Source: a candidate division WOR-3 bacterium (GTDB lineage: Bacteria > Hydrothermota > UBA3072). From it: a stretch of DNA of 64,000 nucleotides. Position numbers and translations under genes: made by a program. Of this stretch, positions 8,189 to 41,901 are shown piece after piece (position 1 is the first letter of the stretch; the number at the start of each line of letters is the position of its first letter). The DNA lies in NCBI GenBank assembly GCA_039804165.1, contig JBDRZZ010000010.1, forward strand, positions 1,223-65,222. The letters are read 5' to 3'. The notes beneath the pieces are model-generated. The model searched no databases. It saw only the letters and a program-made list of their open reading frames with translations, and had not been told where the DNA came from.

Positions 8189-8934
8189 TTTAATCCTTCC
8201 AATATAATTTTTATATTATCAAGAACTGTTTCCTTATATCCTTTTCTATCTGGAAAATTAGACAGAATTACAAAAGGTTTGCTCAACTCAATAGCAATCA
8301 TCCTTCCAATTTTCCCCCTAGTTTGTAAATTATCCACTACAATTTCTACATTTTTCTCTTTCCCAATATTTAAAATATTGGAAAGTTCCTTCAGGGTGAG
8401 TTTTTCCTCCTTTGGAAAAGTGGAAATAACTTCCATTCCAAGAAAAGAAAGAAACTCCCTTTGGTATTCATTACATATAACCTTTATTCCATTAAGAGAA
8501 TCCCTTTTTAACATTATCTTTAAAGAAAGGGAGTCTATTTTACTTATTAGTCTTTTATAATTTTCCTCAATCAATTTGCGATTTGAGCTATCTTCCATCT
8601 CCATTTTTAGAACTTCACAAATCTCTAAAGCTCCCTTTAAATACACAGAAGGAACCATCCAGCTTTCATCTGTTTTAAGGTCTATCAACTTTACTTTTGA
8701 ATTTATTTTTCTTATTTTCTTAATCCATGGTTCAAAACCATGATAAATTATCAAATCAGCCCTATTAAGAAAACCTGCTTCCCTTGGAGAAAGGTCAAAA
8801 TGACCAGGACAACTTCCCTCTGGAACTAAATTTAAAACCTCAGTTTGAAAAGGAGCGATCTCTTTCACCACAGAATAGATGTCACTTGTTGAAGTTATGA
8901 TACATAAATCCAAAACAAATAGTAGGAAAATCAT
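8185..8934 (-). CDS. znuA: Metal-binding periplasmic substrate-binding protein, ZnuA/TroA family (short form)
   Basis: GSCPGHFDLSP...ADLIIYHGFEPW resembles ZnuA N-lobe metal site; 4-nt overlaps with both neighbours. Confidence 0.6.
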   Translation of the reverse strand: MIFLLFVLDLCIITSTSDIYSVVKEIAPFQTEVLNLVPEGSCPGHFDLSPREAGFLNRADLIIYHGFEPWIKKIRKINSKVKLIDLKTDESWMVPSVYLKGALEICEVLKMEMEDSSNRKLIEENYKRLISKIDSLSLKIMLKRDSLNGIKVICNEYQREFLSFLGMEVISTFPKEEKLTLKELSNILNIGKEKNVEIVVDNLQTRGKIGRMIAIELSKPFVILSNFPDRKGYKETVLDNIKIILEGLK

Positions 8935-13204: not shown

Positions 13205-13216
13205 AAGGAGTTAAGA

Positions 13217-13864
13217 ATGAGCATAAAAATAATGATAGTAGATGAACATAAAATCTTAAGAGAAGGTTTAGCAACATTAATCTCAAGACAACCAAATATG
13301 GAAATAGTAGGAGAAGCAACAAATGGGCGAGAAGCCATAGAATTAGTAGATAAAGTTTCTCCTGATCTCATATTGATGGATGTAGCTATGCCAAGCTTAA
13401 ATGGGATTGAAGCAACCCGGAAAATTAAATCAAAGCATCCAAATATTGAAATAATAGGACTCTCCTTACATTCTGATAGAAGATATGTATTGGGTATGAT
13501 AGAAGCCGGAGCTTCAGGATATCTTCTCAAAGAATGCGCTTTTGAAGAACTAGTTCGCGCAATAAATACAGTTATGTCAAAGAAGAAATATTTAAGCCCA
13601 GAAATTTCAGATATCTTAATTGATGAATATGCAAAAAAAACAGCAAAAGAAAAGCCCATTGTTTATTCAAAATTAACGCCCAGAGAAAGAGAAATTCTAC
13701 AATTAATTGCTGAAGGTTACAACACAAAGGAAATTGCAAGTCAACTATTTCTTTCCATAAAGACTGTAGAAACACATAGAAGACATATAAAAAAGAAATT
13801 AAAAGTTGAAAGTGTGGCTGATCTAACAAAAATTGCAATAAAAGAAGGACTCACTACTTTATAA
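13217..13864 (+). CDS. NarL/FixJ-family response regulator (REC + LuxR-type HTH), cognate to the upstream kinase
   Basis: Receiver LILMDVAMP; HTH LTPREREILQLIAEGYNTKEIASQLFLSIKTVETHR. Confidence 0.9.
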   Translation: MSIKIMIVDEHKILREGLATLISRQPNMEIVGEATNGREAIELVDKVSPDLILMDVAMPSLNGIEATRKIKSKHPNIEIIGLSLHSDRRYVLGMIEAGASGYLLKECAFEELVRAINTVMSKKKYLSPEISDILIDEYAKKTAKEKPIVYSKLTPREREILQLIAEGYNTKEIASQLFLSIKTVETHRRHIKKKLKVESVADLTKIAIKEGLTTL

Positions 13865-26287: not shown

Positions 26288-27838
26288 ATGAAGACGAAAT
26301 GTATTCTATTAATCTTATTTACTTTTTTTAACTTATTAGGTAAAAAAATGCCACTTGTTTATGATATTGAAAATACAGGGATGGATTGCCCTTTACCGGA
26401 TTTTCTTTCTTTTAGTGAATTACCAACAATAAAAACTTTACCCGACCCATTTATATGGGCTGATAGTAACAAAGGTCGAATTAAAAGCTGTGACGATTGG
26501 CGATGTCGCCGTGCAGAAATTAGTGCTTTAATTCAACACTATGAACTTGGAACCAAACCAGAGCCTCCAACTAACTTAAAAGCAAGTTTCTCTGATACAA
26601 TTGTAAAATTGCCTCCTATATTTGAAGGTGGAGATTCTATAACTTTGTCAGGTAAAATCCTCGCAATAACCATTGTCGAAAACGAAGATACATTCAGGTT
26701 GTATGCTCCTATAAGTCTCCCTGAAGGAGAAGGCCCTTTTCCTGCTGTAATTGGTGTAGGGTGGTCTCCCACTGGAAGCCTTCCATCAGATCTCTTTATA
26801 ACTCGTGGGATTGCAACAATCCATTATATGGATTGGCAAGTAGCTAATGCTTGGTCTAACAAGCGTGGTGATGGAGCATTCTTTAAGCTTTATCCGGATC
26901 CTAAAAGAGGTAAATTTATCGCCTTTGCCTGGGGTGTAAGTAGAATTATAGATGGCTTAGAAATGTGCCCTCAGGCCAAAATCGACCTCTCCCATTTAGC
27001 TGTAACAGGGTGTTCCTACGCAGGAAAGATTGCGCTTTTTTCTGGGGCATTTGATGAGCGAATCGCTCTCACAATTGCACAAGAACCTGGAGGAGGAGGA
27101 GATGCAGCATGGCGAGTAACAGAAACATTACCAGGTAATAGAGAAACTCTAAAAAACGCTCAAGGTTTTGCCTGGTATAGCCAAGATCTTTCTCAATTCA
27201 ACTATGCAGTTACAAAATTACCTTTTGATCATCATGAAGTAATGGCACTGGTAGCACCACGTGCACTTTTAATAATTGGCAACCCGGATATGGAGTGGCT
27301 TGCAGAAGAATCTGGACATGTGGCGTGTAAGGCTGCTCATGAAGTCTGGAAAGCTCTTGGAGTGCCTGACAGGTTTGGATTTTCTAAAGTCGGTCACAGT
27401 GACCACTGCGTCCTTCCAGACATTCAGAGGCCAGAAGTAATAGCCTTCATAGAAAAATTTCTCCTTGGTGATACTACAATAAACACCAATGTGGAGATTA
27501 GCCCATACAATCCTGATCTTTCTAAATGGATTACCTGGGAGACACCAAAGTTAAAAGAACCACTTTCTTTTACAGGAGATTTCTATTTAGATCAAAACCA
27601 CCCTAATCCATTCAATTCCATTACCACCATAGAATATTATTTAAAAGAAGAAGCTAATGTTGAAATTTCTATCTATGATATTATGGGCAAGAAAATCACA
27701 ACTGTATTAAATAAAAGACAATGCGCAGGCAAACAAACTCTCATTTTTAATGGCTCTGATTTACCAAGTGGTATTTATATTTATACACTTAAAGTTGGCA
27801 AAACACTTAAGAGTAAAAAAATGGTGTTATTACGATAG
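26288..27838 (+). CDS. CE15-family glucuronoyl esterase-like protein with T9SS C-terminal sorting domain
   Basis: VTGCSYAGKIALFSGAFDERIALTIAQEPGGGGDAAWR aligns with the CE15 GCSRxG...RIALTIPQESGxGG catalytic Ser/His region; CTD DQNHPNPFNSITTIEYYL...GIYIYTLKVG. Confidence 0.7.
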   Translation: MKTKCILLILFTFFNLLGKKMPLVYDIENTGMDCPLPDFLSFSELPTIKTLPDPFIWADSNKGRIKSCDDWRCRRAEISALIQHYELGTKPEPPTNLKASFSDTIVKLPPIFEGGDSITLSGKILAITIVENEDTFRLYAPISLPEGEGPFPAVIGVGWSPTGSLPSDLFITRGIATIHYMDWQVANAWSNKRGDGAFFKLYPDPKRGKFIAFAWGVSRIIDGLEMCPQAKIDLSHLAVTGCSYAGKIALFSGAFDERIALTIAQEPGGGGDAAWRVTETLPGNRETLKNAQGFAWYSQDLSQFNYAVTKLPFDHHEVMALVAPRALLIIGNPDMEWLAEESGHVACKAAHEVWKALGVPDRFGFSKVGHSDHCVLPDIQRPEVIAFIEKFLLGDTTINTNVEISPYNPDLSKWITWETPKLKEPLSFTGDFYLDQNHPNPFNSITTIEYYLKEEANVEISIYDIMGKKITTVLNKRQCAGKQTLIFNGSDLPSGIYIYTLKVGKTLKSKKMVLLR

Positions 27839-28009
27839 CTGAAAATAAAAAACGAAAGAGTATTTAACGGATTCTTAATTGTAAAAATTAAAATTTTTCT
27901 CAAATTCTTTATCTTTATAATTAGCAACCTATTTGTTATTTGTATTTTAGTAGAATGGAGGGAATTAGACATAGTTCTTTTCTATTATCTTACAATAAAA
28001 ATAGACCTT

Positions 28010-28889
28010 CCAAGGCAGGTGGTGGACACTTTGAGATATTTTAACATTCACAAGGTCTAATTCCAGATCAAGAGTCACATCCATTTTCTTCTCCAGAAAT
28101 TTATCAAGATCCGCCGCAAACAAGTGGACAAGTTCAGGAGATTTGTTTTCTCAATAAGTATCTCTAAAGAGTTTATCATTCTTGTTTGAGTTCTTTCTCA
28201 TCGTATTAAAGAAAAATAGATAATTATTGACTTTATGAAAGAAATGCTCTTTTCCTTCAAAGACTTCTATATCAAAGAATTCTCTTTTTCTTCTTACTCT
28301 GCAACCTTTTTTCTTTAGGTAATTCGTCTCCTCTCGCATGTAAAATCCTTCTGGCGGTTTCATGGGAAACAGGAACTTAAAAATCTCTAACCAATACCTT
28401 TGTTGACATTTTACCCGTCTCTTTGCGTTTTTCTATGTGTTTGGGTGTCTTATTATGGACTCCCTGATGTGCTCTGGAAGGGTTATATAAGCCTTCTATG
28501 CCACATTTATCAAATCTTTTAAGCCATTTGTAAACGATAGGTCTTCCTGTATTAAAATTACGGGCTACATCTCTATAGACTCTTCTTTCGCATTTTTTAC
28601 CATCTCAAAACGAAATTTTACCTTATTAAAGGGTTGCATATTTTTATAACCTCGTCCTATTGATAATAGAACGTGTTTCCTCCTTTTTTTGTTTGTCTTT
28701 AAAAGGAGGATATTTATTTTAACCATAATTGCAACTCCTTAATTCTTCTAACCAACAATTTAGAACAATTTCGCTCATCTCTCTATAAATCTCATCCTTT
28801 TTTTGAAAAATACCTTATATTTTTTAGGTTTATATTTAAATCTACCCTCTTTATCTCCAAAACCTCCACAAAGTGTCCACCTGCTTTGG
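28010..28889 (-). mobile_element. Decayed IS-like element (~880 bp) bounded by imperfect inverted repeats CCAAGGCAGGTGGTGGACACTTTG (28010-28033) and CAAAGTGTCCACCTGCTTTGG (28869-28889)
   Basis: IRs read directly; interior encodes a frameshifted transposase N-terminal HTH. Confidence 0.55.
28151..28639 (-). pseudogene. Transposase remnant (IS481/IS3-like N-terminal HTH; no DDE domain), at least two frameshifts
   Basis: Minus-strand frames give MQPFNKVKFRFEMVKNAKEESIEM*, then ...RRVYRDVARNFNTGRPIVYKWLKRFDKCGIEGLYNPSRAHQGVHNKTPKHIEKRKETG..., then the 70-aa ORF 28151..28363. Confidence 0.5.
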
Positions 28890-29014
28890 ATTTAACACTT
28901 ACAATAAAAATTTCTATTGACAACAAACAAAAAATAAATAAAATAAATATTAAAAATCTCATCTTGCTTTTCAAAAAATTTTTTAAATTAAGAAATAAAA
29001 CCAAGGAGGAATTA

Positions 29015-32000
29015 ATGAAATTTTATAAAATCACAATTCTATTTATATTTTCTTTGTTCTTAAAAGCTCAGTTCACCTTAAGAATTCATCAACCTCCTCC
29101 AAATCAGTTGAAAATTGAAGATCTCTGGTGGATTGATATAACCAATAGTTCTAATACTTCTCGGAATGTCTATCTACGTGGAGAAGTAAGAGAACTAAGA
29201 AAAGGTCTTTTATTTAGGGGTAGCACAAATGAATTTACAATTCCTTTAGGAAAGACAAGAATAAAAGCAACTGATATAAAAGAGTTAAGAGATAAATGGT
29301 ATAGAGAAGAAGATAAAGACTTTATTGTAAGAACAGGCTCTGTTCCTCCAGGGGATTACACTGCCTGTGTGTATCTAATAGATGCTTCTACAAATCAAGA
29401 ACTCACTCACCAATGCATAAATATCTTGGTTCAACCATCTGGACCGCCAAGATTAATTTCCCCTAAAACAGGAGAACCTTTAAAAAATAAAAGACCTATA
29501 TTCACTTGGACAAGACCTACACCTTTACCCCCAGGAGAAAAAGTTTTTTATAAAATTAAAATCGTTGAAATATACGAAGGGCAAACAAAAGAAGAAGCAA
29601 TAAGATCTAATCCAAGTTGGTATGAAGAAGAGAGAATTAGTAAAACCACTTTCCAATATCCTATTAAAGGTAGAGAATTGGATCCCCAAAAAAGATATGC
29701 CTGGCAAGTTCAAGCCTTTTATAAAGAAGGATTCCCTCTAGGTGAAAACAGAGGGTTAAGCGAAGTATGGGAAATTGGTCCTATTATAAAGGTAAAACCA
29801 ATACCTTTACTACCTTCTTATTTAATAATAGGAGAATTTTTAATAAAAAATATCACTTATACTTCCTTCTCTCTTGACTCTCTCTCTGGAGTAGGAGAAT
29901 CTTTTTTCTTAGAAAAGAACCTCCCTACCCATTTTGGAGGTCCTATTTTTACTTTAACTCCTGTAAAATTCCAGGTAAATTTTCAAAAATTGAAAGTGAA
30001 TTGGGAAAAAGGAGATACTGGTAAGGTTATCTCAGGAGAAATAATTGAAAGTTTTCCTAATCCAATTGAGGTGAAAGTTGAAGGTTATCCTGTTTTTGTC
30101 CACAATGTTCATCTTATGCCAGACTCAGCAATTGGAATTATAGGAGTAAGTATTCCCTGCCTATATGATACAGCTGGTTGTAAAACTATTGAAATAGAAT
30201 CTTTTAAAACAAAAATTTCGCCTATTTTAGACATATATAAAGAGCTTGAGTCTGGAGAAAGAGGCCCTTATAGATTGGGAGAAACAGGGATTCTAATTAA
30301 ATCTAAGGAGAAAATAATAATTGATTTAAGCCATAAAATTACTCCCGGGAAAATAGAAATTCAGTTAAAAAAAGGAGAAACAGTGGAACAAACTCAACTT
30401 GATACTTGCAACACCGGTTATCTTTACGCACATTATATTTTCAACAACGCCGTTTCTACTCCAGCTGGATTCAACGCAACATTTCAGCTCGCCGCTCCTT
30501 GGACATTCCATTCTTTAATCCCAATGGGATTTGAGGTTCACATAAATGAAGGGTATCTAAAAATAGATAGTTGTAAGATAAAAGAAGGTAAATTTAAAAA
30601 CGGTTATATTGTCCTTCCCTCAGACAGTAATGGAGTAACTGATGAGATGGGAAACCCAATTCAAGCTACTTATGATTCTCTCCTTGTCAACTCTTCCTTA
30701 GATATTGGAGGGAAGCTCAAAATAGATAAAGAGATGAGATGGGGTGGATTTGGACTTAAAGTCGTTCATAATTCTAAAATTAAACTTCCAGCAACTTCTT
30801 ATCAATACTACTCAATTGTAGAAAAAGACACTTTTGTCACAATAAATCCAGACACCTTAATAGGTCTTGTAATTTCAAGAATAGACCAGAGATACGACTT
30901 ATTAACTGTTTATTCCAAAGACTCTAAAGCCCCTATAAGGTTTGAAAGATTAGGAGCCCCAGAAAACAAAACTGGAGGCGGATGGTTTAACCTTGAAATG
31001 CAAGGAATGAGAGGTTATTTATCCTCAGATAGTAGAACTCCTCCTTTAAATGTAAAACTCGGAATTCCAGGAAAAACAGGTTATTTATCAGACAGCTCTT
31101 TTAACACAACCTTCACTCATAATGAAATAGACTCAACTTTTATGAAATTCTGGTTTTTGGGAAATTCCTCTTTTAATACCGATCTTAGAGGAAAATTCCA
31201 AATTCCTTATCCTTCTAATATAAAACCTCCTTTCAGAGAATTGGGGATCACTTCAACAGGAAGTTTTGCTGGGGGAAATGCATTTTTCCCAAGCCTAGCT
31301 CTTACTTTAGATTACTGGGGAGTTGGGATTTCTTCTAAAAGAGGAGTAATTAGTGTTAAAAAAGGAGAAATTGTTTACACAAATGCAGAAATCTATGAAC
31401 CTGTCCATTTCTCTAAAGGATTTAATATAATCTGGGGAGAAATGCTTTCTGATGGAGACTTGGGAGAATTTTACTTTAACCACAATGCAGCGCACCAGAA
31501 ATTTGATGGATTTCCAATAACACTTGATTCAGCTGCTCTATCAGAATTTGATCCATCAAGATCTGGAGAACTTGTCGTAAAATGTGGAATTCATTTTAAT
31601 TTCTTTGGTGAACCTGATACACTCATCACAATCCATGATGCAAAATATTCAGCAACAACATCACCCTATTTTGGACGAATCGTTTCCATAGAACCAAGCA
31701 AATTTTCTATTTATAGAAACTGGGGGTCTGGTCTTGCAAAAATGGACTTCAAAGAAGTTGGTTATGATGCTATAGATCAGAACGGATTCATTGGCTTGGG
31801 AAAGGTTGATTTTAACTTTTTTACATCCTCACCTATAAATGCAGAAATTGAGCTTGATAGTATTTATATAAAAATATGTATTTTAGAAACAAAGCAACAT
31901 AATCTAAGACTCTCTTATGTTGAACTCACAAGTCTTGGAGAAATTTGGGGGTGCGCTGTGATTGAAGGAGACGAGCTAAATACAATAGCTTTGGGAGGAA

Positions 32001-32836
32001 GATTAGAAACTTCTACAGGAGGAGGCTTTGAACTCCTATCACCAAAAGCTGGAACTGGCGTTGAAGTGAAAATGGCAATTACCCCAAACATCATAAATTT
32101 TGATGCAAACGGAATAATGTATCTATATGTCTTTGGTGTCGATCTTGAAATTAATGGAAGTCTGTTTCTTAAAACCGATCTATCAAGAGGAAGTGTAGAA
32201 GGAGAAATAAAAGGAGCTTTTGATTTAAGTGCTTTAGGTTTAGATATTGAAGCAGATGGTCAAGCTAACTGGTGTTTTGCACCTCTTTCAAATTATATCC
32301 AAGGAAGATTGGCTGTTAATATATGCGAAGTCGGTTTCGGTAGTGGTCTTTCTGGAGGCCTATTTATAGGAATTAACGCCCCAAAGGATAAACTTTGGGT
32401 TCTTCGTGAAGGTAGTAGTCTTAATAGAAAGTTTGGAATTAACCTAAATTATATCCCGAATAATGTAACAGGTGTTTACGTCTTTGGAGATACAGAATTT
32501 TCCATTAGCCTTGCCGGAGTTATTGAAGGAGGGATTGAAATGTATGCAGGGGTTGGGGCTTTCTTGAATTTAACCCCAACAGAAGATGGTAGTATAATTT
32601 ACAGCACTCTACTACCACTACCCTATGCTGTTGGAATAGTTGGAGTTTACATATATGGAGAAATCTTATGGGGAGTCCTCTCGGCTTCAGCTTGGGGAAA
32701 ACTTGCAATGTATTTGGGAGATCCAATGGGATTTGAAGGAACTTTCGGTCTTCGTGCGTGTGCACTTTGGGTCTTTTGCGGAGAAGTAGAAGTAACCGCA
32801 GGAATGAATTCAAAGGACGGCTTCTATTTAGAATAG
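29015..32836 (+). CDS. Very large secreted protein of unknown function (1273 aa; start set to MKFYKITILFIFSLFLKAQ with AAGGAGG RBS)
   Basis: Signal peptide; N-terminal pair of ~100-aa Ig/FN3-like modules (PIFTWTRP...YAWQVQA); remainder beta-rich and Gly-rich without recognisable motifs; the tool's N-terminal extension into the IS remnant is rejected. Confidence 0.6.
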   Translation: MKFYKITILFIFSLFLKAQFTLRIHQPPPNQLKIEDLWWIDITNSSNTSRNVYLRGEVRELRKGLLFRGSTNEFTIPLGKTRIKATDIKELRDKWYREEDKDFIVRTGSVPPGDYTACVYLIDASTNQELTHQCINILVQPSGPPRLISPKTGEPLKNKRPIFTWTRPTPLPPGEKVFYKIKIVEIYEGQTKEEAIRSNPSWYEEERISKTTFQYPIKGRELDPQKRYAWQVQAFYKEGFPLGENRGLSEVWEIGPIIKVKPIPLLPSYLIIGEFLIKNITYTSFSLDSLSGVGESFFLEKNLPTHFGGPIFTLTPVKFQVNFQKLKVNWEKGDTGKVISGEIIESFPNPIEVKVEGYPVFVHNVHLMPDSAIGIIGVSIPCLYDTAGCKTIEIESFKTKISPILDIYKELESGERGPYRLGETGILIKSKEKIIIDLSHKITPGKIEIQLKKGETVEQTQLDTCNTGYLYAHYIFNNAVSTPAGFNATFQLAAPWTFHSLIPMGFEVHINEGYLKIDSCKIKEGKFKNGYIVLPSDSNGVTDEMGNPIQATYDSLLVNSSLDIGGKLKIDKEMRWGGFGLKVVHNSKIKLPATSYQYYSIVEKDTFVTINPDTLIGLVISRIDQRYDLLTVYSKDSKAPIRFERLGAPENKTGGGWFNLEMQGMRGYLSSDSRTPPLNVKLGIPGKTGYLSDSSFNTTFTHNEIDSTFMKFWFLGNSSFNTDLRGKFQIPYPSNIKPPFRELGITSTGSFAGGNAFFPSLALTLDYWGVGISSKRGVISVKKGEIVYTNAEIYEPVHFSKGFNIIWGEMLSDGDLGEFYFNHNAAHQKFDGFPITLDSAALSEFDPSRSGELVVKCGIHFNFFGEPDTLITIHDAKYSATTSPYFGRIVSIEPSKFSIYRNWGSGLAKMDFKEVGYDAIDQNGFIGLGKVDFNFFTSSPINAEIELDSIYIKICILETKQHNLRLSYVELTSLGEIWGCAVIEGDELNTIALGGRLETSTGGGFELLSPKAGTGVEVKMAITPNIINFDANGIMYLYVFGVDLEINGSLFLKTDLSRGSVEGEIKGAFDLSALGLDIEADGQANWCFAPLSNYIQGRLAVNICEVGFGSGLSGGLFIGINAPKDKLWVLREGSSLNRKFGINLNYIPNNVTGVYVFGDTEFSISLAGVIEGGIEMYAGVGAFLNLTPTEDGSIIYSTLLPLPYAVGIVGVYIYGEILWGVLSASAWGKLAMYLGDPMGFEGTFGLRACALWVFCGEVEVTAGMNSKDGFYLE

Positions 32837-32846
32837 GAGGTAATAG

Positions 32847-35846
32847 ATGTTTTTAATATTTCTTTTGGGAACCACATTAAATCTTTACACAAATGATGTT
32901 ACAATTAAAAGGAAAGATACTACTCTCATTCCTACAATTGGGATGGAATTAAAAGAAATTGATACTATAATTGTTAAAGATAGCTCACGAGCCGAAATTC
33001 TTTATCCTGATAGTTCTATTATATATTTGGACGAAAACACGAAAATTACCACAAGCGGTAAAGAAAAACGTTCTATTTTTATGTCTTTTGGAAGAATCTG
33101 GGCTAAGGTTAAAAAGTTAATAAAAGGAGAATCTTTTGAAGTTAAAACTCCTCTCTCAATTTCTGGAATTATAGGAACAGAATTTGAAGCTTATTATATA
33201 GAAGATAAAATGGAAGTAAAAGTCATTTCAGGAAATTTAAATTTAAGAAATATAGAAACAGGGAAAGAGACTATTCTAAAAGAAGGGAGAATGGCTTTAA
33301 TTGAAAAAGGGATGGAAACAAAAATCCAGAAATTTAGAAAAGACCAGCTAAAACATTGGTATGAATGGAAAAAAGAAGATATTGATTTCCTTTTAAGGAA
33401 ACTATCCGAAGCTAAAAAATTAGGTGATGTAACAAAAGAAGAAGCTTTAACTTCCCAAATAAGAGCCCTTGCGGAAAGATTAAACATGCTTGAAGAATAC
33501 AAGAGAAAAATTGATGAAACTAAAGGTTTAGTTCCACTTTTAAAAGGGGAAATTAAGCCAACCGAAAAGGACTTCCTTTATGCTATAAGTGGTGATGTTT
33601 CAAGAGGAAAAACATTTATTCTACTTAAATGGCCTAAAAAGGAAGGAATTGAAGCCTATGATATTTACAGAATAGAACTTCCCTCCACTTTAATTCCAGA
33701 AAAGCCAATCAATTCTGAACCCATCTCTATTATGAAAGATTGCGAAAAAATAAAGAAAATTATTCTTCCAGGTTCAGAAGAATACGAAGTTATTGTGAAG
33801 GTTTTATCTTCTTTGAAAACAAAAAGTGCAAAGGAAATTCTTCCTAAAACTCCTCTTGATGATGCTCTTTTAATAAAGCCTATTACACCATGTGCTATCT
33901 CCCTAATTTCAGAAACCAGCGAAGCTTACAAAAGCCTTCTTGCTTTAAGTAACAAATATTGGAAAATAGCTTTACTCCTTGGTCAAGCCTATCTTGATAG
34001 CAATGTGGTTGTTGGAAAAAAATATTTGTATTTAATAACTCCATCAAAGAAAACAGAAAGAGAAATTATCCCCATTGACACTGCAATAGTTAAAGCTGGA
34101 AGCTTCACTCCTCTACCAGCTCCAACAGAAGTTACAGCTCAAGCTGGGGATAACAAGGTTCTTATTCGCTGGAATGATGTAAAAAATTCTCTTGGTTATG
34201 AGATTTACAGAAGATCTCCCACTGAACCAGCGATCAAGATAAACGAAGCAGAAATAATGCAAAAATGCACTCTTGACCTTTATGGGAATAAAATCTCAGC
34301 AAAAAATTGCTTTATAGATTTCATGCGATGGGATGAAGGAGGGAATCCCAAAAAACACTTGGTTGGAACAGATTCTATTTATGGCCCCTATAATGGAGTT
34401 AATTATTCTTATAAAATAAGAGGTTTAGATCTCCTCGGAAGACCAGGGGCTTTTAGCTCTCCGGTTTCTGCAAAACCTCAAGACAAAACACCCCCTGCAA
34501 TTCCTTATGGAATAACTGTAGAAGCTTATCCTGATGGACTTTTAGCAAAATGGCATAGAGTCACCCACGATGAACTGGGACATCTTGAACTTGGAGGGAT
34601 AAAAGGATATAGAGTTTACCGTTTTAACTCTGCCGATTCTCTTAAAGATAGTGTGCTTATAAAAGCTCTACTTCCAGACACTTTTGGAGCTTTCCCATTC
34701 TTCAAAGACACAGATCCTTCTTTATTTTCTGCCTATGGAGAAAAGACTTTCTGGTATAGGGTAAAAAGTGTAGACAATTCAGGAAATGTAAGTGGATTCT
34801 CCCCATCAGCTGGAAATCATCTTCCAGACACAACACCACCATCTCCTCCACAAGATCTAAAAGCAGAAAGCCACTCTAATCATATTGCTCTTTCCTGGAA
34901 AAAACCAAATCCAGTTCCATCTGATCTTGCTGGATACAACATATATAGGGGAGTTTGCGGAGGAGATTCTGTTTGCGCTGATAGTGAGAGAATTGGCGAG
35001 AGAAAAGAATGGGTGTGTATAAAAACAGAATATAGAATCTATCCATTATATCTTGTGGGTAACAAAGATCACCCTGATAGTCTCTCTTTCAATGACTATA
35101 CTGTTCCAGAAGGCTCTCCAATTTGTTATAGGTATTCCATCAAAGCTTATGATAGAAGTCAAAATTTAAGCGACACTTCTAAGACTGTTTGTCAAAAACT
35201 AAGAGAAGAAACACCCCCACCACCACCTATTATCGTCGGTTTAAAAGCAAGAGACCGCGCAATAAAAATTGAATGGGTTGCCCCACCGGTTCAAGACTTA
35301 TTTGGCTTTATTGTAGAAAGAGCGGAAAAAGAGGAAGGACCTTATAAGAGAGTAAGCGATACACTTATTTTTCCTGTAGCAATAGGTTGTGAAGACATTC
35401 CCCCTATAAACCGTTGGGCAGCTGACTCAGTTTTTTCCTTTCTTGATACGACAGTTATTGAAAAGAAGGTCTATTGGTACAGAATAAAAGCGGCAGATTA
35501 CCAAGGCAATATTGGTAAACCTTCCATTCCAATAGAAACATACACTTATAGTTTAAGAACTCCTCCTACTCCTTATAACTTATCAGTTACTCAAGTTCCT
35601 GGAGAGTGCGCTCTACAGGTAACCTGGAGACCAACCTATGACCCAAAATACGCCGGGTTTGTTGTATTCAGAAGTATAGAACCAACAAAAGGGTATCGTC
35701 AAATAAGTCCTATAATAAGAGGAAATAAGTTTATAGACAAAAAGATAATTCCGAATAAAGAATATTGGTATAAAGTTCAGTATTTTGCTAAAAATGGAAA
35801 CCGGTCTCCTACTGGAGGAGCAGAAAAGGGGAAAGCAACTCCTTGA
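32847..35846 (+). CDS. FecR-domain protein with coiled-coil segment and multiple fibronectin type III repeats (999 aa)
   Basis: N-terminal FecR-like beta-sandwich (AEILYPDSSIIYLDENTKITT...FEVKTPLSISGIIGTEFEA); four or more FN3-like units each with W...GY(E/N)IYR; RBS AGGAGG 8 nt upstream. Confidence 0.6.
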   Translation: MFLIFLLGTTLNLYTNDVTIKRKDTTLIPTIGMELKEIDTIIVKDSSRAEILYPDSSIIYLDENTKITTSGKEKRSIFMSFGRIWAKVKKLIKGESFEVKTPLSISGIIGTEFEAYYIEDKMEVKVISGNLNLRNIETGKETILKEGRMALIEKGMETKIQKFRKDQLKHWYEWKKEDIDFLLRKLSEAKKLGDVTKEEALTSQIRALAERLNMLEEYKRKIDETKGLVPLLKGEIKPTEKDFLYAISGDVSRGKTFILLKWPKKEGIEAYDIYRIELPSTLIPEKPINSEPISIMKDCEKIKKIILPGSEEYEVIVKVLSSLKTKSAKEILPKTPLDDALLIKPITPCAISLISETSEAYKSLLALSNKYWKIALLLGQAYLDSNVVVGKKYLYLITPSKKTEREIIPIDTAIVKAGSFTPLPAPTEVTAQAGDNKVLIRWNDVKNSLGYEIYRRSPTEPAIKINEAEIMQKCTLDLYGNKISAKNCFIDFMRWDEGGNPKKHLVGTDSIYGPYNGVNYSYKIRGLDLLGRPGAFSSPVSAKPQDKTPPAIPYGITVEAYPDGLLAKWHRVTHDELGHLELGGIKGYRVYRFNSADSLKDSVLIKALLPDTFGAFPFFKDTDPSLFSAYGEKTFWYRVKSVDNSGNVSGFSPSAGNHLPDTTPPSPPQDLKAESHSNHIALSWKKPNPVPSDLAGYNIYRGVCGGDSVCADSERIGERKEWVCIKTEYRIYPLYLVGNKDHPDSLSFNDYTVPEGSPICYRYSIKAYDRSQNLSDTSKTVCQKLREETPPPPPIIVGLKARDRAIKIEWVAPPVQDLFGFIVERAEKEEGPYKRVSDTLIFPVAIGCEDIPPINRWAADSVFSFLDTTVIEKKVYWYRIKAADYQGNIGKPSIPIETYTYSLRTPPTPYNLSVTQVPGECALQVTWRPTYDPKYAGFVVFRSIEPTKGYRQISPIIRGNKFIDKKIIPNKEYWYKVQYFAKNGNRSPTGGAEKGKATP

Positions 35847-35857
35847 AAGGAGGATAA

Positions 35858-37441
35858 ATGAAGAAGATAAATTTAATCTTTGCCATTTTTATTTTTCTAG
35901 CAACAGCTTCTTTACAAAGCGGAGATGAGTTTACAAAACTCCACACCTGGAGATTCGAAAATGTAACTTACTTTACTGATGCAAGTGGAAAAACAGTCTT
36001 ACCTTGGGAAATATACACGCGGGCTTTTATAGGAATTTGCAAAGACTCAAATACTGCAAAGGTCCTTTGTCCTTTAGATTATGCTTTTTATAAAGCTTAT
36101 AATGCAGCCTTTGCCATTGCATCTGGAAATTGTTTTGGAATGAGTTTACTCGCAAACATTATATACAAAGAAGAAGGACATCTTGGTTTTTGTAAACCTA
36201 TTTATACTTATTCTGGTGATTATAATGGCCCTGCTTCAGCCAAATTATGCACCACAATTACAGTGATGCAATGTCATGAATGGAGTCATGCTGGAATTTT
36301 GTGGATAGCAGAAAATATAACTGGAACTCATCCAAAGGATCCAAATTACGCTTATAAACAAATTGAATATTATCTATCTATGGGAGACTTACCTCTTATT
36401 ACCCTTGTAAAAAATGATAGTATGGTAGGACATACATTGATCCCATATAGATTAAAGGAAACTGCTTCGAAACGCTACATTTATTTATATGACCCAAATA
36501 AATGGTATCCTCCCGATTCGGATTTCTACGATAACAATAAAAATTACATAGAGATTGACCGCGGAAGTGGTAACTGGTCTTATGAATTTAAACCTGGAGA
36601 AATTTGGGGGTCTCCTGACGGTTACATTTTTGCAACACCAATGTCTATTGTAAAACCACCCTCTCGCAATCCTCTACAGCTTGGAGGAATAACTGATGCG
36701 TTAAATCATATTTTCTTAACAGGAGCAAATATAGCTCAAATCACAGATGGAGAAGGTCATAAGTTTTATAAAACAAGCGGATCTTCACACACCCGACTCT
36801 CAGATATAGAAGATAACCCTAGACTCAGAATAAAAAACTTATTTAGAATGCCAGTTAATTCCGCAAAAAGAGGCTCAAATATAAAGGAAATTCCTGAGAT
36901 TTATTTTGCAATTAATTCTTTAGGAAAAGATCTTAATTTTGAGATTGCTTCAAGAGGTGAAAAATACAATTTTGAAATAGCAGGTAAGGATAATATTATA
37001 AAATTGACTTCTCAAGGAGGTCTTAATGGAAGAGACCTTTTAAACATAAAGAAACTTTCCACTCTTAACGAAGAAATAGAATTAACAACCAAAAGAAGCA
37101 ATCCTAATTTTGAAATAGAAATCTATAAAAAACTCCCAGAAAAAGAGATGGCAAGAAGGTTTAAGATTTCTAATTTAAGTCTTCCAGGTTCTATACCTAT
37201 TAAAATAAGATTATCTAAAGATAGAGAAAGTCTTCTTGTTAAAGGAGAAAAAGAATCAATTACTTGTAATCTTGAGATTACCCAAGTTATAGGTAACAAA
37301 ATAACAAAGATGCCAGTTAAAGTAATAAATGTTCCTGGTAAAGATTGGCATGAGGTCTCTCCAAGTGATTGGGATAAATTAAATGATGCTACAATAAAAA
37401 TAAACAAATTACCAATTACCCCTCAGCTCCCTAAAAAATAA
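35858..37441 (+). CDS. Secreted hypothetical protein, putative Cys-nucleophile hydrolase
   Basis: Signal peptide; G-N-C-F-G (GxCxG elbow, also papain-like CWAFS-ish) and a downstream His (VGHTLIPY); assignment tentative. Confidence 0.35.
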   Translation: MKKINLIFAIFIFLATASLQSGDEFTKLHTWRFENVTYFTDASGKTVLPWEIYTRAFIGICKDSNTAKVLCPLDYAFYKAYNAAFAIASGNCFGMSLLANIIYKEEGHLGFCKPIYTYSGDYNGPASAKLCTTITVMQCHEWSHAGILWIAENITGTHPKDPNYAYKQIEYYLSMGDLPLITLVKNDSMVGHTLIPYRLKETASKRYIYLYDPNKWYPPDSDFYDNNKNYIEIDRGSGNWSYEFKPGEIWGSPDGYIFATPMSIVKPPSRNPLQLGGITDALNHIFLTGANIAQITDGEGHKFYKTSGSSHTRLSDIEDNPRLRIKNLFRMPVNSAKRGSNIKEIPEIYFAINSLGKDLNFEIASRGEKYNFEIAGKDNIIKLTSQGGLNGRDLLNIKKLSTLNEEIELTTKRSNPNFEIEIYKKLPEKEMARRFKISNLSLPGSIPIKIRLSKDRESLLVKGEKESITCNLEITQVIGNKITKMPVKVINVPGKDWHEVSPSDWDKLNDATIKINKLPITPQLPKK

Positions 37442-37446
37442 AAGAT

Positions 37447-39087
37447 ATGAAAAATAGAATATTAATCCTCATTTTTTTCTCCTTTCCTTTTTATGCTGAA
37501 TTAATTAAATTCTCAGGTTATACCACTTTATATGGAGAATATAATGATATAAATGGAGACACTCTAATTGAACCCACTACACAAATGAGATTCTTTCTCA
37601 ATCCAACAATATCAATCGCAGAAATGCCCATTTCTTTCGAACTATGTTTAAGCTCTTTAGAATCAAAAGCTCGTCAAGCTTTAAATAAATATAGAATAAG
37701 TATCCAACCCGAAAAACTATTAAAAGAAAAGGCCAACCTTCCAAGTTTTATATTTTCTATCTCTAACATTGAATTTGGAACCTGTTATCCATATTTTTCT
37801 TCTCTTACTCTCTCTGGGATTCCTCTAACTGGAGGTGTGTTTGAACTAAATCCAGGAATTTTCCATCTTGAAGGTGCAAAGGGAACTATACAAAGAGGTG
37901 TAACTGGGTCTGATTCAACCTTTACAGAATACGCTTATGAAAGAAGTATGTTTGCCTTTACGCTTGGATTAGGTAGGAAAGAAAACTCCCATTTACATTT
38001 TATTTTTCTTCATGGAATTGATGATACAAATTCTGTTTCTCCTTATTTTATTCCTTTAGGAAGTGATACGGATAGTGTAGAGGTTTTAAAACCAATGGAG
38101 AATTACCTCCTTGGAGCTCTTCTAAAACTTTCTTTCTTCAATAATAAGTTCAATATAGAATCAGAATTTGTAGGCAGTGAACTTGTAAGGGACATAAGGA
38201 CTCCAGAGCTCCCTTCTTCTGAAATCCCCTCTTTTATTAAGAATCTCTTGCATCCGAAAATCAGTAGCTCTTTTGACTTAGCTTTTCTAATAAATTCCTC
38301 TCTAACCATTTACAATACAGAAATTAGTGGTTCACTCACTCTTGTAGGACCAGGTTTCTTTTCTTTTGGAAATCCATATCAAAGAAATGACCTTTTGTCC
38401 TACAAAGGAGGCTTAAAACAAAATCTATTTAACAACACCCTATTTTTATTCGCCTCTCTTTCAAAAGAAAAAGACAATCTAATTGGAATAAAAGGTTCAA
38501 CAACTGCTTTCCAAACGCACGAATTAGGAATTGGTTTCAATTTTTCTGATTTTCCTTCTATCCAGTTTAGTTATAGCCCTTATAGTGAAAAAAATGATTC
38601 TATTAATTTAGATAGAAAGTGTGATATGTTTTCCATAAATACAGGATACAATTATAATTTTATGAATTTAAACAACAACACCACTCTCTTCCTCTCTTAT
38701 CAAAATTACGAAGACACTAATGATTCTTCAAATTATTCAGGCAAAGCTATTTCTCTTTATCATGACATCAGTTTTATAAAACCCTTAACAATTTCTTTTG
38801 AGATTGACTTCTCAGAAACAAATTATCCTGATACAGTAGAAAAAACTTTATCTCTTGACTTTGGAACCTATTACACTTTCCTTGAAAAATTAACAAATGG
38901 AATTGGAGTTAATATCTCTAAGGAAAAAGAAACTTCTAAAAAGGGTTTATATTTAAACTCCTCTCTATCTACCAAATTTCTTGGAAATTTAACCTTGGAG
39001 GTAGAAAGAAATTTTTATTCCGGAAAGCTTGAAAAAGAAAATTATGATGAATGGCGAATAATTGGAAGTGCCTCAAGAAAATGGTAA
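37447..39087 (+). CDS. Predicted outer-membrane beta-barrel protein
   Basis: Signal peptide MKNRILILIFFSFPFYA; alternating amphipathic beta-strand pattern throughout; C-terminal aromatic (…RKW). Confidence 0.45.
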   Translation: MKNRILILIFFSFPFYAELIKFSGYTTLYGEYNDINGDTLIEPTTQMRFFLNPTISIAEMPISFELCLSSLESKARQALNKYRISIQPEKLLKEKANLPSFIFSISNIEFGTCYPYFSSLTLSGIPLTGGVFELNPGIFHLEGAKGTIQRGVTGSDSTFTEYAYERSMFAFTLGLGRKENSHLHFIFLHGIDDTNSVSPYFIPLGSDTDSVEVLKPMENYLLGALLKLSFFNNKFNIESEFVGSELVRDIRTPELPSSEIPSFIKNLLHPKISSSFDLAFLINSSLTIYNTEISGSLTLVGPGFFSFGNPYQRNDLLSYKGGLKQNLFNNTLFLFASLSKEKDNLIGIKGSTTAFQTHELGIGFNFSDFPSIQFSYSPYSEKNDSINLDRKCDMFSINTGYNYNFMNLNNNTTLFLSYQNYEDTNDSSNYSGKAISLYHDISFIKPLTISFEIDFSETNYPDTVEKTLSLDFGTYYTFLEKLTNGIGVNISKEKETSKKGLYLNSSLSTKFLGNLTLEVERNFYSGKLEKENYDEWRIIGSASRKW

Positions 39088-39091
39088 AATA

Positions 39092-39844
39092 ATGAGAAGG
39101 AAGAAAATCCTAATAATAGAAGACGATTACGACCTTTCTGCCTTAATGATAAGACACCTTCGTTCAGCCAATTATGATGTTTTTAATGTGAGTGATGTAA
39201 TTCAAGGCGTTCAGATTGCAAGAAAAGAAAAACCTGACTTAATCGTTCTTGATTTAATGATTCCGGGAGGTGGAGGAATCACTGTGTTAGAAAGATTAAG
39301 TAGACTCCCCGAAACGCAAAATATACCAGTTATAGTGCTTACAGGGGTAGAAGATCCTGAAATAAAAGAAAGAGCTCTTAAAGCTGGAGCAAAGGAATAC
39401 ATAGAAAAGCCATATAATGCTCAAAAGCTTCTTAAAAGTATAGAAGAAAATATTAAAGAAGAAGAAAAAATAATTGAGGGTAGTTCAGGCCATATATTAA
39501 TAGTGGATGATGATAAAGATTTCACAAAAAAACTATCCATAGATTTACAGAAAGCCAATTACAAAACTACCATTGCTTATGATGTTGATCAAGGTCTAAA
39601 GATCGCAAGAGAGGAAAAACCAGACTTAATAATTCTTGATATATTAATCCCTGGTGGAGGTGGATTTACCTTTTTAAAAACCTTAAGAAGTATCATTTAT
39701 ACTCAAAACATCCCTGTTATTGTGCTCACTGCTGTAAAAGACGAAGAATATAAAAAGAAAATGATAGAGGCGGGTGTAAAATATTACATTGAAAAGCCTT
39801 ACGACTTAAATATTTTACTAAATGCAATTGAAGTTGCTATTTAA
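39092..39844 (+). CDS. Stand-alone tandem receiver protein (two CheY-like REC domains, no output domain)
   Basis: Two complete REC modules, each with DD pair (EDDYD/DDDKD), phospho-acceptor Asp (LIVLDLMIP / LIILDILIP), T (VLTG/VLTA) and K (EKPY); alternative upstream start at 39062. Confidence 0.75.
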   Translation: MRRKKILIIEDDYDLSALMIRHLRSANYDVFNVSDVIQGVQIARKEKPDLIVLDLMIPGGGGITVLERLSRLPETQNIPVIVLTGVEDPEIKERALKAGAKEYIEKPYNAQKLLKSIEENIKEEEKIIEGSSGHILIVDDDKDFTKKLSIDLQKANYKTTIAYDVDQGLKIAREEKPDLIILDILIPGGGGFTFLKTLRSIIYTQNIPVIVLTAVKDEEYKKKMIEAGVKYYIEKPYDLNILLNAIEVAI

Positions 39845-40640
39845 GTTTTAATAATTCTATTAAAGCTTTTGCATTCTCATACATTTGGTAATTATTAAAC
39901 ATACAATAAATTCTTTCTTTTTTATTTAAAAGAGTTTCAAGTTTCTCAGCTAAAATCTCTATTTCTTCTTTTTTATAATTATAATTGTAGTTATACTTAT
40001 TCTTATTTAACCCATGAAGTCTTATATATCCAATTGGATGATTAGAAAGAGGTTCCTCTCTCATAATATCTACTATATGAATAATGTTAAGAGAATCACA
40101 GATATACTTTATCTTTTCAGGAAATTTTTCCCAAGATCCTCTTGGTTCCCAAGCTATCTCAAAATTTCCTCTTGTTATTCCATCAAAAAATTCCATTATA
40201 TTTTTTTCATTCTCCTCAGAATAACCAAAGCTTATAGGTGTTTGGATCACACAAACTTTAATCTTTAATGCTTCTCCAACTTCTTTTATCTTTTCCCAAG
40301 CCTTAAATATCTCTTGATTCGGTCTTAGATATCCAAAACTTTCCCTTTCTTTATCAGTTAAATTCCCCTTAAAACTTCTCCAGGTAGGGCTACTAAGGGG
40401 ATGAGTTATTGCTTGCCAAGACTTCATAGTAAACTCAAAATCTTTCGGGACTTCTTCCCTCCATTTAATTGCTGTCTCTACCTTAGGGAGTTTATAAAAA
40501 GTTTCATTTAATTCTAAAGAAGGGAAAATATAAGAATAAGCCCTTAATTTACTACCATATTTTTCCTTCCAGTTTTCCTCGGGTTTATACCTTGTATAAC
40601 CACAGGTTCCAATTATAATTCTTCTTAAAAGACTCCTCAT
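39837..40640 (-). CDS. DUF72 (YecE-like) family protein
   Basis: IGTCGYTRYKPEENW...FPSLELNETFYKLP...FEFTMKSWQAITH matches the DUF72 N-terminal pattern. Confidence 0.65.
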   Translation of the reverse strand: MRSLLRRIIIGTCGYTRYKPEENWKEKYGSKLRAYSYIFPSLELNETFYKLPKVETAIKWREEVPKDFEFTMKSWQAITHPLSSPTWRSFKGNLTDKERESFGYLRPNQEIFKAWEKIKEVGEALKIKVCVIQTPISFGYSEENEKNIMEFFDGITRGNFEIAWEPRGSWEKFPEKIKYICDSLNIIHIVDIMREEPLSNHPIGYIRLHGLNKNKYNYNYNYKKEEIEILAEKLETLLNKKERIYCMFNNYQMYENAKALIELLKLK

Positions 40641-41173
40641 TTTACTCTAAAATTATTTTTCATCTCCAAAAACTTTTTCTTACACTTCATAGCAAATTCT
40701 AGAAAAATTTCACTCTGATAATCAGGATATGTCCAAGCTTGGGGCTGAAAACCAGTCCCTTTATAAATTAGTGTAACCTCAGCAAAAACTCCTTCTCCAA
40801 GATAAATCCTATGAGAAAAATTTTTTGTCGTCACAAGAACAACCCTATTATCACAGATTCCCCCCGGATCACAATTTACAGTTCTCTTATCCCCTACACA
40901 AAGACTTTTTTCCCAAAAAAGAGTTTTATGTTTTATCTTTACCAACTCATTTTCTGGTATCACCTTCTCAATAGAAACCCATTTCCTCCTTAAAGAATCT
41001 CCCATTTCATCTTTATAGTAATCTGTAAAATTAAAAGGAATTTCAGGGCTCTGAATATCTATTTTCCCTATTTTACTTATTTCGTTTAAAACAAAAGAAA
41101 GCCCTTCTTGCTCTTTATATATAATTCCAAAAAATATTTTTGTTAGGGGAGGAAAAACCGGATTATTATCCAT
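40637..41173 (-). CDS. Conserved hypothetical protein (start adjusted to MDNNPVFPP...)
   Basis: ORF with FNFTDYYKDEMG motif, no family I can name confidently; tool ORF start overlaps pilD. Confidence 0.35.
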   Translation of the reverse strand: MDNNPVFPPLTKIFFGIIYKEQEGLSFVLNEISKIGKIDIQSPEIPFNFTDYYKDEMGDSLRRKWVSIEKVIPENELVKIKHKTLFWEKSLCVGDKRTVNCDPGGICDNRVVLVTTKNFSHRIYLGEGVFAEVTLIYKGTGFQPQAWTYPDYQSEIFLEFAMKCKKKFLEMKNNFRVK

Positions 41174-41901
41174 TCTCCATAGAAAAAGATAATAACACCA
41201 CCGATCGCCAAAAAAGGACCATAAGGAATCTGAGACTTTATTGAAAGTTTCCTTCTCCTTATTTGAATTAATCCATAAATAGAACCTAACAAAGCACTCA
41301 CCATAACTACAAGAAGTAGTCCAGCCCATCCAAGAAAAGCTCCTATTAAAGCAGCAAGCTTCAAATCTCCAAAACCCATAACATCCTGTTTGTATACAAG
41401 CTTACCAAAAGTTATTATTATCAAAATAATTATAGCTCCTAAAATAGCCCCTAAAAAAGAAATAAAAGCTATTCCCCGAAAAATAGAAAGAATTAGCCCA
41501 ATCACAATCCCGGAAATAGAAAGGGAATCAGGGATAAGAGTTGTTTTAAGGTCAATAAAAGAGATTGGAATAAGCAAAGATATAAAAACAAGAAAAGTAA
41601 ATAGTTCAAGGGATATTCCAAGACGAAAATAGCTATAAAGAAAAAAGAAAGCACTCAATATCTCTACCAAAAGATACGTAATAGGGATATCAAATTTACA
41701 ATTTCTACACTTTCCATTAAGAATAACATAACTTAAAATAGGAAGATTATCTCGCCACCGTATCTTTTCTCCGCAGTTAGGACAATGAGAAGGAGGATTT
41801 ATTAAAGAAATCCCTTTTGGTAACCTATATATAATTACATTAAAAAAACTCCCAAAAGCCGCACCAAGAGAAAAAAAGAATATCCCTAAAAGAATTTTCA
41901 T
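41143..41901 (-). CDS. pilD: Prepilin peptidase (A24 family; type IV pilin/pseudopilin leader peptidase)
   Basis: N-terminal CPNC...CRNC zinc ribbon; [18 protein letters not shown] catalytic-Asp region. Confidence 0.8.

Follow-up and report, generated by a model that had tools for sequence, protein, structure and literature searches.

A recurrent three-gene core with clade-specific additions in a candidate surface-protein cluster of a WOR-3 bacterium

What kind of envelope system, if any, is encoded by five adjoining genes of a candidate division WOR-3 bacterium that resemble no locus described so far? The genes, here called g1 to g5, occupy positions 29,015 to 39,844 of a 64,000-nucleotide stretch (the window) of contig JBDRZZ010000010.1 (GenBank assembly GCA_039804165.1), a chromosomal region that also holds rpoB/rpoC-sized open reading frames (ORFs), EF-G and a tRNA cluster. 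They encode a giant all-β protein (g1), a FecR-like and FN3 protein (g2), a predicted papain-like cysteine enzyme (g3), a probable outer-membrane β-barrel (g4) and a tandem receiver protein (g5). An earlier note, written from the sequence of the window, had singled the cluster out as encoding uncharacterised exported envelope proteins. We agree with this description: no characterised locus matches the cluster, and a literature search returned no account of such a locus. We found that g1, g2 and g3 are the core of the system, and that the FecR-like domain of g2, together with g4 and g5, are the additions of one clade. We tentatively explain the locus as a self-contained module for surface display, in which the system's own cysteine enzyme would carry out maturation or release. 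The coordinates of all features are given in Table 1.

The division into core and additions is seen in the distribution of the genes. One genome per species was scanned with a g3 profile, and g1 to g5 were then compared by phmmer with all ORFs of the loci that were fetched. The complete order g1-g2-g3-g4-g5 is kept in at least 12 other WOR-3-type metagenome-assembled genomes (MAGs), with 55-70% protein identity and with flanking genes unrelated to those of the window; the position of g5 directly after g4 is conserved in 12 genomes. Neighbour-gene clustering covered 18 core loci, in which g1 and g2 are present throughout (18 each), g3 in 17, g4 in eight and g5 in six, with no further recurrent neighbour gene found across the same 18. 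Core-only loci also occur in MAGs of Calditrichaceae, Terriglobales, Omnitrophota, Acidobacteriota and Chromatiales, and the g1-g2-g3 core recurs across at least six bacterial lineages. Two variant loci were seen, one with g4 but no g5 and another ordered g3-g1-g2-g4. The earlier note had offered cell-surface signalling as one reading; as the essence of the locus, this distribution does not sustain it, the FecR-like domain, g4 and g5 being absent from most of the core lineages.

Five-gene WOR-3-type MAGs carry a second, three-gene copy (g1-g2-g3) on another contig, approximately 37% identical to the first (the five-gene copies at fetched loci L021, L023 and L024 versus the three-gene copies at L015, L013 and L031 of the same MAGs). 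No second copy was found within the window. A 4.9-kb contig labelled Phycisphaerales (L018) holds g1, g2 and g3 at ∼66% identity to the WOR-3 genes. Since this identity is far above that of any other non-WOR-3 lineage, L018 is probably a mis-binned WOR-3 contig and not a planctomycete copy.

The genes are co-directional and follow each other with gaps of 10, 11, 5 and 4 nt, in order; here the ORF list and the earlier note agree. The strong AGGAGG ribosome-binding sites (RBSs) that the note had reported are present before g1, g2 and g3; g4 and g5 have weak ones. In an alignment of the regions upstream of g1, the −35 hexamer of the candidate promoter, TTGACA, is invariant in 9/9 loci and is followed in all of them, after 16-17 nt, by a TAnAAT −10 element. 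Such short gaps, together with the conserved gene order and promoter, make a single transcription unit, as first proposed, likely. From promoter to g5 this unit would encode four products that are probably exported and a receiver protein of the cytoplasm. The only hydrophobic segments in the five products are N-terminal and signal-type, with no internal transmembrane helices; signal peptides are present in g1, g3 and g4 of the window and in g1, g2 and g3 of distant orthologues, and g1, g2 and g3 are predicted to be Sec-exported. At the other end of the unit, the 3′ end of g5 overlaps a convergent DUF72 gene (39837-40640, minus strand) by 8 nt (39837-39844), and no terminator-like hairpin was found between the two.

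Just upstream lies the insertion sequence (IS) remnant that the earlier note had reported and which we also found, as a frameshifted transposase flanked by inverted repeats; the N-terminus of the transposase has weak matches to HTH_28, HTH_32 and LZ_Tnp_IS481. Between the end of the remnant and the conserved −35 hexamer downstream of it there are ∼27 nt. Orthologous loci lack the IS, and the spacer upstream of g1 measures 64-337 nt in them. Because relatives without the IS keep both the cluster and the promoter, we reject the suggestion that the operon was acquired horizontally by way of this element. The IS is an insertion private to this locus; it spared the promoter and is uninformative on how the operon was acquired.

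The giant protein g1 begins with a signal peptide and a double Ig-like head (residues 1-255 with the head at about 21-255; nt 29015-29779). The N-terminus of a Peptidase_C25 protein shares 56% identity with this stretch, and that of an Ignavibacteria protein with a type IX secretion system (T9SS) C-terminal domain (CTD) shares 32%. Heads of the same type also top RCC1-repeat proteins, the hosts being WOR-3, Ignavibacteria and Bacteroidota. By what it shares with the Peptidase_C25 and T9SS-CTD proteins, the head is of an extracellular type. Behind the head is a conserved all-β body of ∼950 residues (from about residue 320 to 1273), which is 30% identical to that of an Acidobacteriota orthologue (residues 321-1273 compared). 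The most conserved part of the protein is this C-terminal body, not the head. In longer members of the family the body is preceded by FG-GAP repeats or a lectin-like domain, and because these modules take the place of the head, the head is exchangeable and the body constant. Run against 1.84 billion representatives, a profile of the final domain (residues 950-1273) recovered only 136 clusters; the domain was always at the extreme C-terminus of its host proteins, which are 1040-2435 residues long. As the earlier note had said of g1, g3 and g4, the protein belongs to no recognisable family, and searches of Pfam, NCBIfam and the PDB with the single g1 sequence and with a profile gave nothing significant.

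An AlphaFold2 (AF2) model of residues 290-1273 is all-β, with a mean predicted local distance difference test (pLDDT) of 71.6 and a predicted template modelling score (pTM) of 0.50. The last ∼300 residues of this model make up 14-16 long strands with short turns between them, and many of the strands have a single hydrophobic face. Against the PDB, Foldseek listed LptDE first (E = 7.7e-6), with ApoB100 and the large subunit of MTP also listed. We rejected these matches as homology, as the TM-scores are ∼0.1 despite E-values down to 7.7e-6. The C-terminal ∼300 residues of the model can be called barrel-like, and weakly resemble outer-membrane β-barrels.

The third core protein, g3, has a signal peptide, a papain-like domain (about residues 25-270) and a β-rich C-terminal domain (about residues 280-520), and is 100% identical to ABIN61_05075, a protein from a MAG of candidate division WOR-3. 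Across the orthologues and 41 relatives from many phyla, Cys92 (in G-N-C-F-G-M-S-L) and His192 are invariant, and Asp212-Pro-Asn214 nearly so. In the AF2 model (pLDDT 75.9), Cys92 begins a helix (residues 92-104), His192 lies in a strand (191-201), and Asp212 and Asn214 come after a further strand (205-211). A fold search returned papain-like enzymes as neighbours, including SpeB, interpain and a type VI secretion system (T6SS) C39-like effector; the C-terminal half is a curved β-sheet domain with generic fold matches only. Because both the modelled structure and the order of the residues fit clan CA, the evidence points to g3 being a clan CA (papain-like) Cys-His-Asp/Asn enzyme. The earlier note had proposed a Cys-hydrolase-like protein with a G-x-C-x-G nucleophile elbow. 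The cysteine that it picked out is real and invariant, but the elbow and an α/β-hydrolase fold are rejected, given the Cys-His-Asp/Asn order and the papain-like model. Searches of g3, as a single sequence and as a profile, against Pfam, NCBIfam and PDB sequences gave no significant match, and in particular no sequence match places it in a curated peptidase family (C39, C10, C47, BTLCP or others); the one contact with such a family is a weak match of one of the 41 relatives to Peptidase_C39_2 (7.7e-4).

The g3-type catalytic domain is also found embedded in LGFP-repeat proteins of 1000-1330 residues, from Actinomycetota, Calothrix (Cyanobacteria), Algoriphagus (Bacteroidota), Nannocystis (Myxococcota) and betaproteobacteria, some of them cultured; examples among fetched loci L033-L087 are L045 (7823-11674), L034 (8672-11563) and L037 (8090-11401). 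We found no Pfam model that covers the G-N-C-F-G-M-S-L ... H ... D-P-N domain. The C-termini of g3 orthologues bear one to three tandem Q-M-P-P-D-P-L-x-K-K tails, and the g3 of the window has one short P/K-rich tail (37400-37441).

The domains that had been recognised in g2 are all present. Residues 39-130 (nt 32961-33236) match the FecR family (PF04773; E = 1.4e-14; score 54.7 bits, cut-off 24), and NCBIfam places this region as LipL45/Lsa33-like. A charged, helical and coiled-coil-like linker follows (about residues 165-235), and then, at about residues 240-999, six FN3-like units of the W...GY.[IV]YR type, as counted in the translation. The fn3 signals in g2 of the window are FN3-like, and fn3 matches in its orthologues are significant. 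In the core-only loci g2 lacks the first ∼240 residues while its FN3 core still aligns; only the five-gene clade therefore has the FecR-like domain and the helical linker. The protein has no hydrophobic segment of 19 or more residues, and its FecR domain begins 38 residues from the N-terminus.

Apart from its signal peptide, the accessory protein g4 is free of hydrophobic helices; it has 19 β-amphipathic segments and a C-terminal Trp, and one distant homologue matches OMP_b-brl. As a single sequence and as a profile it gave no significant match in Pfam, NCBIfam or the PDB, and a profile-profile comparison with the C-terminal domain of g1 found the two unrelated (probability 0.2%). These features fit the barrel that the earlier note had proposed, and g4 is probably a lineage-specific, accessory outer-membrane β-barrel. 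The last gene product, g5, consists of two receiver domains (residues 6-117 and 134-246; Pfam Response_reg, E = 1.9e-51), a tandem arrangement that had been correctly recognised, and has no output domain. Both receivers keep the acidic pair, the phospho-acceptor aspartate (D54 and D183 as counted), the threonine and the lysine, in the motifs DD...D54...T...K and DDD...D183...T...K, and among solved structures the PleD receiver domains are the closest to them.

One further locus bears on the roles of g2 and g4. At positions 1-10722 of L088, a 223-kb contig of the Joint Genome Institute metagenome 3300005573, an unrelated giant protein of 3968 residues and a TPR protein are encoded. Downstream of these two are a g2-like FN3 protein of 658 residues (E = 2.8e-29) and a g4-like barrel of 573 residues (E = 9e-42), and both g1 and g3 are absent. 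FN3 partner and barrel may form a pair at the service of more than one giant protein, and the pairing in L088 with another giant fits a helper role of g2 and g4 towards giant surface proteins.

How would the parts work together? In the surface-display module that we tentatively prefer, the C-terminal domain of g1, likened to the C-terminal barrel of an autotransporter, would anchor the protein in the outer membrane, and perhaps export it, so displaying the exchangeable binding head. The six FN3 units of g2 would form a rigid array that partners g1 or acts as its scaffold, and g3 would process, release or cross-link g1, g2 or both. In the WOR-3 clade the FecR-like domain with its linker, g4 and g5 may together give the module a regulatory input. 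That g1 and g4 lie in the outer membrane, which substrate g3 acts on and any signalling role are points that we infer from these sequences.

By analogy, the locus resembles a general kind in which a surface protein is combined with a dedicated clan CA enzyme and an outer-membrane barrel, and its closest parallels were compared in turn. Scans with the family libraries confirmed that the cluster holds no T9SS CTD, sigma factor, kinase, ABC transporter or other type I secretion system (T1SS) component, as the earlier note had stated. In the Lap system of Pseudomonas, a giant surface adhesin is held at an outer-membrane barrel, LapG is an exported Cys-His-Asp protease of the papain/transglutaminase fold, and the system is linked to intracellular signalling. 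The common logic with LapA, LapG, LapD and LapE is that of a giant surface protein, a barrel, a dedicated cysteine enzyme and signalling. Here, however, a T1SS (ABC, membrane fusion protein or TolC-like LapE), RTX repeats and LapD are all lacking, g3 falls outside BTLCP, and the conserved anchor-like domain of g1 is at the C-terminus; the Lap families (T1SS, RTX adhesin, BTLCP LapG and LapD) had no match in g1 to g5 or in recurrent neighbours. In the Fap operon, FapD is a C39-like peptidase, FapF is a barrel and the structural proteins are secreted amyloids. Both loci set a gene for an exported peptidase of C39-like or papain fold beside a barrel and secreted proteins, and FapF was among the weak matches of the fold searches. 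In contrast to Fap, our locus lacks amyloid-repeat subunits, g3 is not a C39 peptidase by sequence, and the core has no separate barrel.

A classical type Va autotransporter ends in a C-terminal β-domain (PF03797) that forms a 12-stranded barrel. In g1 there is no PF03797 match, and the C-terminal domain is larger (∼300 residues, 14-16 strands), sits on a further conserved β body of ∼630 residues and ends in a polar residue; the FN3 protein and the cysteine enzyme are obligate partners here, unlike in the type Va systems. That the g1-g2-g3 set is an unrecognised, self-contained surface-display or secretion system, a new autotransporter-like class in which the C-terminal barrel exports or anchors the head and the FN3 partner and a new clan CA enzyme are obligate, is a bolder proposition, and we consider it rather unlikely as it stands. 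Two-partner secretion was not indicated, as Haemagg_act, ShlB, POTRA and Bac_surface_Ag had no match in g1 or g4.

Several observations weigh against the surface-display explanation. The g1 model is of moderate quality, and the TM-scores to known barrels give a closed barrel no support. The last residue of g1 is polar (GFY[ILV]-E/K/R/D/Q), and substrates of the β-barrel assembly machinery (BAM) usually end in an aromatic residue. The barrel assignment of g4 draws solely on features of its sequence. In the five-gene clade the N-terminus of g2 is short, uncharged and hydrophobic, which makes its export uncertain. Finally, g5 has no output domain, the cluster has no kinase, and no membrane-spanning link from the FecR-like domain to g5 is visible.

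These last points bear equally on signalling across the envelope in the manner of the Fec system, in which g1 or g4 would sense, the FecR-like domain of g2 would pass the signal on and g5 would relay it. The FecR match itself, the probable outer-membrane barrel of g4 and the intact phospho-acceptor sites of the tandem receivers are each consistent with this scheme, as is the joint occurrence of the FecR-like domain and g5 in the same clade. However, where FecIRA has an anti-sigma domain, a transmembrane helix, an extracytoplasmic function (ECF) sigma factor and a transducer, the FecR-like domain of g2 is fused to the six-FN3 array and comes with none of these, so that the inner membrane is left unspanned. 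Searches with Sigma70_r2/r4 gave no match in g1 to g5 or the flanking genes, and searches of g2 with anti-sigma Pfam families were likewise negative. Plug, TonB_dep_Rec and STN were absent from g4 and 24 homologues, although the same library finds the TonB-dependent receptor elsewhere in the window. The nearest relatives of the FecR region, LipL45 and Lsa33, are Leptospira FecR-domain lipoproteins that also stand outside a sigma/anti-sigma context. No ECF sigma factor or kinase lies in or next to the cluster, and we rejected a kinase partner, the sole kinase of the window being a PAS-HisKA_3 protein 16 kb away that has its own LuxR-type regulator. Because the core persists in most lineages without the FecR-like domain, g4 and g5, signalling would be at most an add-on, and we regard the Fec-type scheme as improbable.

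We hold an extracellular foraging or attack complex to be just as improbable; in it g3 would be a secreted protease, g1 and g2 would attach to a polymer, to prey cells or to the surface of a host, and the task would be to degrade or intoxicate and not to construct something on the cell's own surface. Such a complex would suit the variable heads of the g1 family (lectin-like, FG-GAP and Ig), the presence of SpeB, interpain and the T6SS C39-like effector among the fold neighbours of g3, and the secreted glucuronoyl esterase encoded next to the cluster. It is at odds with the strict linkage of the three genes and the 60-70% identity within the clade, which suggest one specific set of partners and not a general protease, with the peak of conservation in the C-terminal body of g1 and not its head, and with the lack of nearby genes for a secretion system that could release it.

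Lower still, and quite improbable in our judgement, stands a device for envelope biogenesis or lipid handling, whose β-sheets in g1 and in the C-terminal domain of g3 would shield a hydrophobic cargo in the manner of LptD, TamB or lipid-transfer proteins. The Foldseek list headed by LptDE, with ApoB100 and the MTP large subunit, and the many g1 strands with one hydrophobic face are what recommend it, but a family as rare as this one is unlike a housekeeping biogenesis factor, and variable adhesin-like heads with an FN3 partner are a poor fit. The weakest alternative, a divergent adhesin cassette linked to the T9SS (of the SprB/SprF or PorU/PorV type; T9SS attachment machinery includes the C25 peptidase PorU and the PorV and PorP/SprF barrels), can appeal to the combination of surface cargo, cysteine enzyme and barrel common to both, to a g1 head also found on T9SS-CTD proteins and to the two CTD cargo genes of this organism, but is very improbable and largely refuted by the absent CTD, with no type A (Por_Secre_tail) or type B CTD on g1 to g3 in Pfam or NCBIfam (the neighbouring esterase scores 1.5e-11), no match to PorP/SprF, PorV or Peptidase_C25 in g4 or g3, a g3 that is papain-like and not gingipain/caspase-like, and a core that is also found in lineages such as Chromatiales.

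If the surface-display explanation holds, the core would be a compact envelope module of three proteins, one that passes between distant diderm phyla and is independent of any known secretion system, and it would bear on how surfaces are built in little-studied lineages (WOR-3, Omnitrophota, Calditrichota and Acidobacteriota). Two families can be named now: the papain-like G-N-C-F-G-M-S-L ... H ... D-P-N family, which is missing from Pfam and is shared with the LGFP-repeat proteins, and a rare family of giant all-β proteins with a strictly C-terminal, barrel-like domain.

Table 1. Positions of the cluster and of other features in the 64,000-nt window
Feature	Position (nt)	Strand	Details and basis
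g1	29015-32836	+	1273 aa from ATG after AAGGAGG; ORF list
g1 C-terminal domain (aa 950-1273)	31862-32833	+	14-16 long amphipathic β-strands; ends in conserved ...C.LW..C....T.G.N...GFY.E.
g2	32847-35846	+	999 aa; ORF list
g3	35858-37441	+	527 aa; ORF list
g3 candidate catalytic residues	C92, 36131-36133; H192, 36431-36433; D212/N214, 36491-36499	+	Conservation and AF2 model
g4	37447-39087	+	546 aa; ORF list
g5	39092-39844	+	250 aa from own ATG; ORF list
Candidate operon promoter	28917-28944	+	−35 TTGACA, 16-nt spacer, −10 TAAAAT; 11/12 consensus, best in region
Leader, ∼70 nt, ending in RBS AAGGAGG	28945-29014	+	Alignment of g1 upstream regions; AAGGAGG invariant
Decayed IS element, outside the operon	28009-28890	−	Inverted repeats 28009-28022 and 28877-28890; frameshifted transposase N-terminus
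Glucuronoyl esterase with Por_Secre_tail CTD	26288-27838	+	GCE_fung, E = 9e-76
BNR_4 protein with Por_Secre_tail CTD	3752-5989	−	T9SS-type cargo gene
Multi-PAS HisKA_3 histidine kinase	10949-13864	+	LuxR-type response regulator adjoins; 16 kb from g5
TonB-dependent receptor	8931-10715	−	Adjoins multi-PAS kinase

Beyond the cluster, the organism uses T9SS-style sorting, as the glucuronoyl esterase and the BNR_4 protein carry CTDs, unlike the operon proteins. Downstream, the mechanically called ORFs of a DUF4416 protein (40637-41329, minus strand) and an A24 prepilin peptidase (41143-41901, minus strand) overlap by ∼190 nt; the Pfam match of the former begins at residue 63, so the true start of the DUF4416 gene is probably further downstream.

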